Shown here piece after piece: positions 35,416 to 36,812 of a DNA stretch of 36,812 bases. Source of the DNA: Escherichia coli. Its GTDB lineage: Bacteria > Pseudomonadota > Gammaproteobacteria > Enterobacterales > Enterobacteriaceae. Numbering within the stretch: position 1 is the first letter of the stretch; each line of letters begins with the position of its first letter. The notes beneath the pieces are model-generated. The model was given only the letters and a program-made list of their open reading frames with translations, was not told the DNA's origin and did not search any database. The DNA lies in NCBI RefSeq assembly GCF_003334315.1, contig NZ_QOWR01000048.1. One strand, 5' to 3'. The translations under genes and the position numbers were made by a program.

Positions 35416-36690
35416 ATGAAAGTGACATTAACGTTTAACGAACAACGTCGTGCGGCGTATCGTCAGCAAGGGTTATGGGGCGATGCTTCGCTGGCTGATT
35501 ACTGGCAGCAGACCGCTCGTGCGATGCCAGACAAAATTGCCGTGGTCGATAATCATGGTGCATCGTACACCTATAGCGCGCTCGATCACGCCGCGAGCTG
35601 TCTGGCAAACTGGATGTTAGCGAAGGGTATTGAATCAGGCGATCGCATCGCATTTCAACTGCCAGGCTGGTGTGAATTTACCGTTATCTATCTTGCCTGC
35701 CTGAAAACCGGTGCGGTTTCCGTGCCGCTGTTGCCTTCCTGGCGGGAAGCAGAACTGGTGTGGGTGCTCAATAAGTGTCAGGCAAAAATGTTCTTTGCAC
35801 CGACGTTGTTTAAACAAACGCGTCCGGTAGATTTAATCCTGCCGCTGCAAAATCAGCTTCCACAACTACAACAAATTGTAGGCGTGGACAAACTGGCTCC
35901 CGCCACCTCTTCCCTCTCATTAAGTCAGATTATCGCCGACAATATCCCACTGACCACGGCGATAACGACCCACGGCGATGAATTAGCTGCTGTGCTGTTT
36001 ACCTCCGGAACCGAGGGTCTGCCAAAGGGCGTGATGCTAACGCATAACAATATTCTCGCCAGTGAGCGGGCTTATTGCGCGCGGCTGAATCTGACCTGGC
36101 AGGATGTCTTTATGATGCCTGCGCCACTTGGTCACGCAACGGGATTTCTGCATGGCGTAACAGCACCATTTTTAATTGGTGCTCGCAGCGTGTTGTTAGA
36201 TATTTTCACTCCTGATGCATGTCTCGCGCTGCTTGAGCAGCAGCGTTGCACCTGTATGCTAGGCGCAACGCCGTTTGTCTATGATCTTTTGAATGTACTA
36301 GAGAAACAACCCGCGGACCTTTCAGCGCTGCGTTTCTTTCTTTGCGGCGGAACCACAATCCCCAAAAAAGTGGCGCGTGAATGCCAGCAGCTCGGCATTA
36401 AATTATTAAGTGTTTATGGTTCCACAGAAAGTTCGCCGCATGCGGTGGTGAATCTCGATGATCCTTTGTCGCGCTTTATGCACACCGATGGTTACGCTGC
36501 CGCAGGTGTAGAGATTAAAGTGGTCGATGACGCACGCAAGACCTTACCGCCAGGTTGTGAAGGTGAAGAAGCCTCGCGTGGCCCCAATGTGTTTATGGGG
36601 TATTTTGATGAACCTGAATTAACCGCCCGTGCGCTGGATGAAGAAGGCTGGTATTACAGCGGCGATCTCTGCCGCATGGATGAGGCTGGC
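35416..36690 (+). pseudogene. fadK: fadK (ydiD), anaerobic short-chain acyl-CoA synthetase, 3'-truncated by IS1
   Basis: Frame from ATG 35416 (MKVTLTFNEQRRAAYRQQG...; an alternative in-frame ATG lies at 35362) contains the AMP-binding motif LFTSGTEGLPKGV. At 36690/36691 the frame runs straight into IS1 sequence (...CRMDEAG|GNDSNLLIVFYVQ...), so the C-terminal ~120 aa are replaced. Confidence 0.85.
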
Positions 36691-36812
36691 GGTAATGACT
36701 CCAACTTACTGATAGTGTTTTATGTTCAGATAATGCCGATGACTTTGTCATGCAGCTCCACCGATTTTGAGAACGACAGCGACTTCCGTCCCAGCCGTGC
36801 CAGGTGCTGCCT
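36691..36812 (-). mobile_element. IS1 insertion sequence, partial: right end (IRR) and insB 3' region; body continues beyond window end
   Basis: Begins with GGTAATGACTCCAACTTACTGAT (IS1 IRR, one difference from the form I recall). The minus strand encodes the InsB C-terminal region ...QHLARLGRKSLSFSKSVELHDKVIG. Confidence 0.95.
36726..36812 (-). CDS. insB: IS1 InsB (transposase C-terminal part), 3' end only; appears frameshifted near its end relative to the canonical sequence
   Basis: Minus-strand translation gives ...ARLGRKSLSFSKSVELHDKVIGII followed by TGA at 36726-36728. I recall canonical IS1 ending ...DKVIGHYLNIKHYQ; the window has GGC where I recall GGGC. Confidence 0.6.
   Translation of the reverse strand, partial: RQHLARLGRKSLSFSKSVELHDKVIGII

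Follow-up and report, generated by a model that had tools for sequence, protein, structure and literature searches.

ANL enzymes turn their C-terminal domain by about 140 degrees from one half-reaction to the other; the A8 hinge permits the rotation required for thioester formation, and the lysine of motif A10 acts in adenylation, where it contacts the alpha-phosphate (PMC8388817). FadK from Escherichia coli is a normal two-domain ANL enzyme judging from solved ANL homologues, which align over FadK residues 13-538, and Pfam assigns residues 31-397 of the intact allele to AMP-binding (PF00501, E 2e-87) and residues 448-525 to AMP-binding_C (PF13193). The role of FadK is still debated and anaerobic induction of fadK is disputed; a fadK single mutant grows on all fatty acids, FadD being sufficient (PMC9329746).

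The closest counterparts of the locus described here are complete E. coli genomes with an IS1-interrupted fadK. IS1 is present at exactly the same fadK nucleotide (after nt 1275) in eight of 5,426 complete genomes, in three of them (RM14721, EC20-4B-2 and PRO_A-1462-6M-A_ESBL, in the following PRO_A) in the orientation found here and in five (VTB97420v, LST200A, 20377, 22919 and 14EC033) in the opposite one. Seven of the eight carriers were read, while strain 22919 is represented by its BLAST row only. All seven contain a 768-bp IS1 and a 9-bp target duplication, which is GAGGCTGGC in six of them and GAAGCTGGC in 14EC033. The fadK 3' fragment remains beyond IS1 in the same-site genomes (eight complete genomes; 22919 from the BLAST row only), and PGAP annotates the two parts as 'fadK ... 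incomplete; missing C-terminus' and as an 'AMP-binding enzyme ... missing N-terminus' fragment. An IS1-interrupted fadK is a known kind of event at a site that is already recorded in RefSeq.

The junction of fadK and IS1

Our window, i.e. the whole stretch of 36,812 nucleotides of E. coli DNA that was analyzed, begins and ends within IS1. The features at its right end are the following:

35416..36690, plus strand: fadK 5' fragment, codons 1-425 of the 548-aa form, comprising the whole N-terminal ANL domain
36682..36690, no strand assigned: 9-bp IS1 target GAGGCTGGC, fadK codons 423-425; the same 9 bp are found on both sides of IS1 in complete genomes
36691..36812, minus strand: the first 122 nt of IS1 counted from the right end (IRR), up to where the window stops within the element; the minus strand carries the transposase genes
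36691..36713, no strand assigned: IS1 right terminal inverted repeat GGTAATGACTCCAACTTACTGAT, an exact pattern match with 0 expected by chance
36726..36812, minus strand: 3' end of the IS1 insB / InsAB' transposase frame, with a premature TGA at 36728-36726
36736..36737, no strand assigned: CC in IS1 instead of the canonical CCC, a gap in the alignment to canonical copies

The start codon ATG of fadK occupies 35416-35418 and yields the 548-aa form used by RefSeq genomes, while an in-frame ATG further upstream at 35362 leads to the older 566-aa FadK model. Codons 1-425 match the intact 548-aa allele of strain CP53 throughout (0 mismatches in 1275 nt, 425/425 residues). There is thus no upstream disruption of the kind that would have spoken against the initial annotation, and the break, placed in that annotation at about residue 425 of the 548-aa form, is located exactly at residue 425|426. 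Similarity to fadK ends at 36690, such that the junction is 36690|36691, where the intact allele reads ...MDEAG|YIKITGRKKD.... In the window, translation of 35416-36811 gives 465 codons and zero stops with the C-terminal end ...DLCRMDEAG|GNDSNLLIVFYVQIMPMTLSCSSTDFENDSDFRPSRARCC, just as had been described for a fadK frame without a stop at the junction. The 465-aa product had no exact match in the contig index. The predicted tryptic peptide across the junction, following ...DLCR, is MDEAGGNDSNLLIVFYVQIMPMTLSCSSTDFENDSDFR. The coding sequence is otherwise intact, is cut precisely at an IS terminus and is uninterrupted in close relatives, i.e. it presents itself as a pseudogene caused by an insertion sequence.

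That the fadK frame enters antisense IS1, as proposed initially, is borne out by the terminal repeat and by 99.2% identity (one gap) of the 122 nt to IS1A-type copies, for which hundreds of records give the annotation IS1A family transposase. The terminal inverted repeats of about 23 bp that define IS1 membership (GGTAATGACTCCAACTTA.../GGTGATGCTGCCAACTTA...) are present, with the right end at 36691-36713 and the left-end repeat of a different IS1 copy at 182-204. Of the element itself 122 nt are visible here; an element of about 768 bp with the 9-bp duplication is seen at the fadK site in each of the seven complete genomes that were read. Over the 36,486 nt of unique window sequence (205-36690), the closed genome of ST12468 shows 6 mismatches and no gap. 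This near-identity points to a recent insertion and to high sequence quality; the corresponding block in ST12468 begins within ydhS and ends within fadK, with both genes intact. As fadK is the last gene before convergent ppsA, no downstream gene is affected.

Taken together, it is highly probable that fadK has been knocked out by transposition of IS1 into GAGGCTGGC (codons 423-425) with the transposase genes antisense to fadK, and nothing contradicts the insertion itself. According to the mechanism we propose, IS1 would have inserted at this 9-bp target, and any fadK mRNA would be translated past residue 425 and on through codons supplied by IS1 up to the first stop, which comes after 26 codons if the IS1 is canonical and after about 112 (yielding about 537 aa) if the CC contraction is real. 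The result would be a complete N-terminal ANL domain in what should be regarded as a pseudogene product and not as a new protein. The rest of IS1 and the fadK 3' fragment would be expected just beyond the contig end.

The ends of the window have features in common. A second IS1, oriented like the one at the right, contributes its left end as positions 1-204, with the repeat ending at 204, and the first difference of this piece from other common IS1 variants falls on window position 78. At the right, the last 77 nt (36736-36812) start exactly where the IS1 copy regains bases common to canonical IS1. Most likely, the window is a complete k=77 short-read de Bruijn contig with a break inside IS1 on either side, and the remaining IS1 and the fadK 3' fragment are consequently out of view. 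The terminal IS1 bases of the contig deserve caution.

The left IS1 marks a second IS1-disrupted gene. It abuts about codon 231 of ydhS, which encodes 534 aa in ST12468 and of which only the 3' part is present in the window (ORF 231-1118). The 36.5-kb block between the two IS1 pieces (205-36690) comprises ydhS', ydhTUXWVY, fumD, pykF, lpp, ldtE, sufEDCBSA, menI, ydiJ-ydiT and 'fadK. As it lies between IS1 copies in direct orientation, IS1-IS1 recombination could in principle remove, amplify or circularise it, and a circular molecule or a composite transposon was considered as a reading of the two same-orientation IS1 ends. Within the window there is no sign that such recombination occurred.

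Probable recurrent IS1 insertion at one fadK target

IS1 hot spots are a known phenomenon, the classic paper on IS1 hot spots and IHF being that of Gamas et al. from 1987 (cited in PMC11043490). Our search of the literature on fadK together with IS1 returned unrelated papers only, and a general search on IS1 hot spots yielded papers on IS10 and IS26 only. The fadK site would be a new example of an IS1 hot spot, not a new principle.

The three genomes with IS1 in the orientation of the window share with it the nucleotide of insertion and the 9-bp target GAGGCTGGC. The first 15 IS1-derived residues are also the same in RM14721 and PRO_A, while EC20-4B-2 has S for N at the second of them. All three differ from the window in that their IS1 is canonical (CCC), which leads to a tail of 26 codons and a product of 451 aa. 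Furthermore, their fadK alleles are 19-26 of 1275 nt off that of the window and their IS1 variants are 14-45 nt apart from each other, pointing at independent events and not at one clone. The five genomes with the opposite orientation have the same target, the 9-bp duplication and the pseudogene annotation in common with the window, and in VTB97420v the fadK allele is even identical (0/1275 mismatches). In these five, however, IS1 was entered from its left end and the tail consists of 8 residues (GDAANLLI), resulting in 433 aa.

In total, the window and the eight complete genomes (loci include L001-L003 and L021-L024) involve different IS1 variants (IS1A, IS1B, IS1X2), which sit in either orientation and in E. 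coli backgrounds that are divergent. The fadK alleles of the carriers are 0-36 of 1275 nt apart, up to 47 nt separate their IS1 variants, and flanking polymorphisms are found 16-300 nt from the junction on both sides. In two pairs, window/VTB97420v and PRO_A/LST200A, an identical fadK allele is combined with opposite IS1 orientation. These differences in allele, IS1 variant, flank and orientation are indicative of repeated independent insertion at one 9-bp target, and IS1 would have entered at this exact nucleotide at least about eight separate times, two of the carriers being probably clonal. We judge it rather likely that GAGGCTGGC at fadK codons 423-425 is a strong natural IS1 hot spot.

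One ancestral insertion spread by descent or recombination was considered as well and rejected because of the flanking SNPs, the extent of IS1 variation and the opposite orientations on identical alleles. The target is a GC-rich nonamer bordering an A-tract-rich stretch with 73% A+T (TATATAAAAATTACC...CAAAAAAGATATTATT). A search for the IHF consensus WATCAANNNNTTR with at most one mismatch gave no match within 100 nt on each side of the target, and an IHF site as explanation of the hot spot is therefore unsupported here.

Further IS1 insertions in fadK were noted at codons 397 (2017.17.03CC), 429 (2273-PO3) and 539 (ET245), with others in the 3' third of the gene. In ET245 (L004, fadK 4054-5673), IS1 resides at codon 539 of 548 and the resulting 539-aa fusion is annotated by PGAP as intact fadK (WP_370604850.1). 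As motif A10 (519-528) is kept in the encoded sequence, this fusion may still be active.

Length and expected activity of the read-through product

The fadK frame is open for 40 IS1 codons up to the window end. By our own estimate 40 stop-free codons have a chance probability of about 15%, and the open frame into IS1 is no more than chance. It reaches the window end because one C of the CCC run is missing. When canonical IS1 (CCC) is read in the fadK phase, 26 codons with the tail GNDSNLLIVFYVQIMPDDFVMQLHRF are followed by TGA at codon 27, giving 451 aa. The contraction moves reading into a long antisense IS1 frame that is stop-free for about 100 codons, and in a model built on a full IS1 matching the 122 nt of the window save for the gap, the stop comes 112 codons past the junction, giving about 537 aa. 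Translation into the full element, which the initial annotation had proposed for finding the stop, thus has two outcomes, and its statement that translation continues past the window end holds insofar as the frame is open to the end, but rests on a rare 1-nt contraction in place of the canonical 26-aa tail. On the minus strand, where the last approximately 35 codons of insB lie within the window, the contraction frameshifts the insB end from ...KVIGHYLNIKHYQ to ...KVIGII, i.e. the last 9 residues (HYLNIKHYQ) are swapped for II and a premature stop. Minus-strand frame 0 in the window ends with ...SVELHDKVIGII*. In an intact IS1, the transposase is produced from insA-insB' by a programmed frameshift.

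Contraction-bearing IS1 copies exist elsewhere. A 60-nt query around the contraction is matched exactly in 13-14 of 8,152 E. coli records, which together hold 53,327 IS1 places. About ten strains have such a copy at one locus of a large plasmid, beside the dispersin gene; the others are on plasmids of MB51 and 2009C-3133 and on the chromosome of 2017-03-3CC. The elements resemble that of the window in the identical 60 nt, in their length of 767 bp, in the annotation as 'frameshifted' and in the 112-aa tail (P0001); they differ in their insertion sites, and over the first 122 nt they deviate by 1-5 nt. In the copies examined, PGAP marks the transposase gene as 'frameshifted'; the copy in 2009C-3133 is an exception, being split into several pieces, one of which is so marked. 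The occurrence of the contraction in different SNP backgrounds looks like recurrent slippage in the C run. Protein P0001, encoded on seven public contigs, runs from a different flank into a contraction-bearing IS1 and has the same 112-residue tail (...RRLSYA), which, at the level of the predicted protein, supports the 112-aa tail after the contraction independently.

A contraction unique to the window was considered at one stage and was rejected in view of P0001 and then of the exact 60-nt matches in complete genomes. When all 122 nt were required to match exactly, neither the 9,405 E. coli records nor the 5,000 plasmid records yielded an IS1 copy, because two neighboring SNPs confounded this test. 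A 35-nt contraction pattern had 0 matches in species-representative genomes and one in metagenome contigs, in a contig of 1.9x coverage with two more homopolymer deletions nearby. This error-ridden contig illustrates that the same 1-nt change can arise as a sequencing error.

Roughly ten closed plasmids, along with several contigs of drafts or metagenomes from different countries, carry the 767-bp IS1 at one fixed site next to the dispersin gene (L009-L012, L017-L020). This frameshifted copy is stable and inherited, and the 156-aa ORF that gene finders predict across it is the read-through P0001. The strand opposite insB (canonical IS1 frame 1, codons ~14-112) offers about 100 stop-free codons, and this run is called as a 96-aa hypothetical protein (MTLSCSSTDFENDSD...) without Pfam match in hundreds of public assemblies. 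Probably, this 96-aa ORF is a by-product of insB codon usage.

Five sequence motifs of FadK are distributed over the break as follows:

A3, TSGTEGLPKG, residues 196-205: retained in the window ORF
A5, YGSTE, residues 334-338: retained in the window ORF
A7, SGD, residues 415-417: retained in the window ORF
A8 hinge, RKKDIIVRGG, residues 432-441: lost from the window ORF
A10 with the catalytic lysine (Px4GK), PRTTSGKIQK, residues 519-528: lost from the window ORF

The break occurs 7 residues before A8 and leaves a near-exact N-terminal domain with a nonsense tail, in which IS1-derived residues replace A8, A10 and AMP-binding_C. The initial annotation was right in that the P-loop/AMP-binding motif is kept, TSGTEGLPKG residing inside the retained codons. 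Its view that the C-terminal domain is lost is accurate for the ORF, from which AMP-binding_C (448-525) is gone, and for the ORF only. The assignment of this domain to the thioester step was likewise true but incomplete, as adenylation needs the A10 lysine too. With both the A8 hinge and the A10 lysine lost, adenylation and thioester formation should both fail. Judged from these motifs, the chimeric product, for which inactivity had been considered very likely, would be inactive with more certainty than argued at that time, since A8, A10 and AMP-binding_C are all absent from the ORF. A comparison can be drawn with ANL enzymes cut to the N-terminal domain, which the FadK ORF resembles in the absence of the mobile C-terminal domain and from which it differs in that its truncation is accidental and a nonsense tail is attached.

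Three other readings of the locus have to be weighed. According to the first, the insertion is real but the missing C at 36736-36737 is a sequencing or assembly error, in which case IS1 would be canonical and the product would be a 451-aa protein with the tail GNDSNLLIVFYVQIMPDDFVMQLHRF. The CCC run and the stop at codon 27 in RM14721, EC20-4B-2 and PRO_A fit this reading, as do the rarity of the contraction, its occurrence as an error in the low-coverage metagenome contig, its location inside a repeat and 76 nt from the contig end, and the fact that it is the only indel in the window, with 0 gaps in the 36,486 nt of unique sequence. On the other hand, the same contig is free of homopolymer problems elsewhere, and the contraction recurs in closed, independently assembled genomes at four or more other loci and in different IS1 backgrounds. 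Moreover, the contig runs through the contraction unbranched and ends exactly 77 nt after it, which in a k=77 graph means that there was no competing canonical path from the fadK flank; an erroneous path backed by few reads would either have been removed by clipping or have led to a break about 47 nt into IS1. An error at this position thus appears unlikely to us, and we consider the contraction to be probably real.

The other two readings concern the insertion and its product. The junction could be the edge of an IS1-mediated rearrangement (an adjacent deletion or inversion), with the fadK 3' fragment and perhaps ppsA and sequence beyond deleted or moved. Such an event would be in line with a window that ends in IS1 on both sides with both pieces in the same orientation, that stops 122 nt into the right IS1 and that contains neither second target copy. 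Contig breaks at IS copies are, however, normal in short-read assembly, the closest relative (ST12468) is fully collinear, and the seven complete genomes that were read are cases of simple insertion with a 9-bp duplication and a 3' fragment that is kept. A rearrangement is thus improbable; simple insertion predicts that in the same assembly an IS1 left end is followed by GAGGCTGGCTATATAAAAATTACC. Finally, it might be imagined that a chimeric protein of FadK(1-425) and the IS1 tail is made and functional, be it as an adenylate-binding or dominant-negative protein or via a role of the 112-aa antisense-IS1 peptide. The ORF does exist, the fadK start and the upstream operon are kept, and the stop-free antisense IS1 frame is often called as a 96-aa ORF (P0006, P0008). 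Against this, the tail is merely the antisense of insB and is without a Pfam domain in any relative, the motifs A8 and A10 required for catalysis are absent, and tails of 8, 26 or 112 aa among the same-site IS1 genomes reveal nothing conserved. We regard a function of the chimera as extremely improbable.

Consequences for fadK and its annotation

Transpositional knockout of fadK, our preferred reading, makes the chimeric product a trivial consequence of IS insertion. Any IS insertion into a coding region predicts a chimera up to the first stop, the case is thus an ordinary one, and the initial reading is correct but unremarkable. With regard to annotation, the ORF belongs under pseudogene and not under a 465+ aa 'AMP-binding protein', and a single base, located in a repeat where the contig ends, shifts the predicted product from 451 to about 537 aa.

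The event has little biological weight, as fadK encodes a dispensable secondary acyl-CoA synthetase and its loss to IS elements is routine genome decay. Loss of fadK is probably near neutral, with FadD covering the function. The reuse of one 9-bp target by IS1 both ways is a tidy natural example of target preference. If the hot spot is confirmed, the site would offer a defined chromosomal position at which IS1 target choice could be studied, and fadK would be marked as a gene that is lost repeatedly and neutrally in E. coli.
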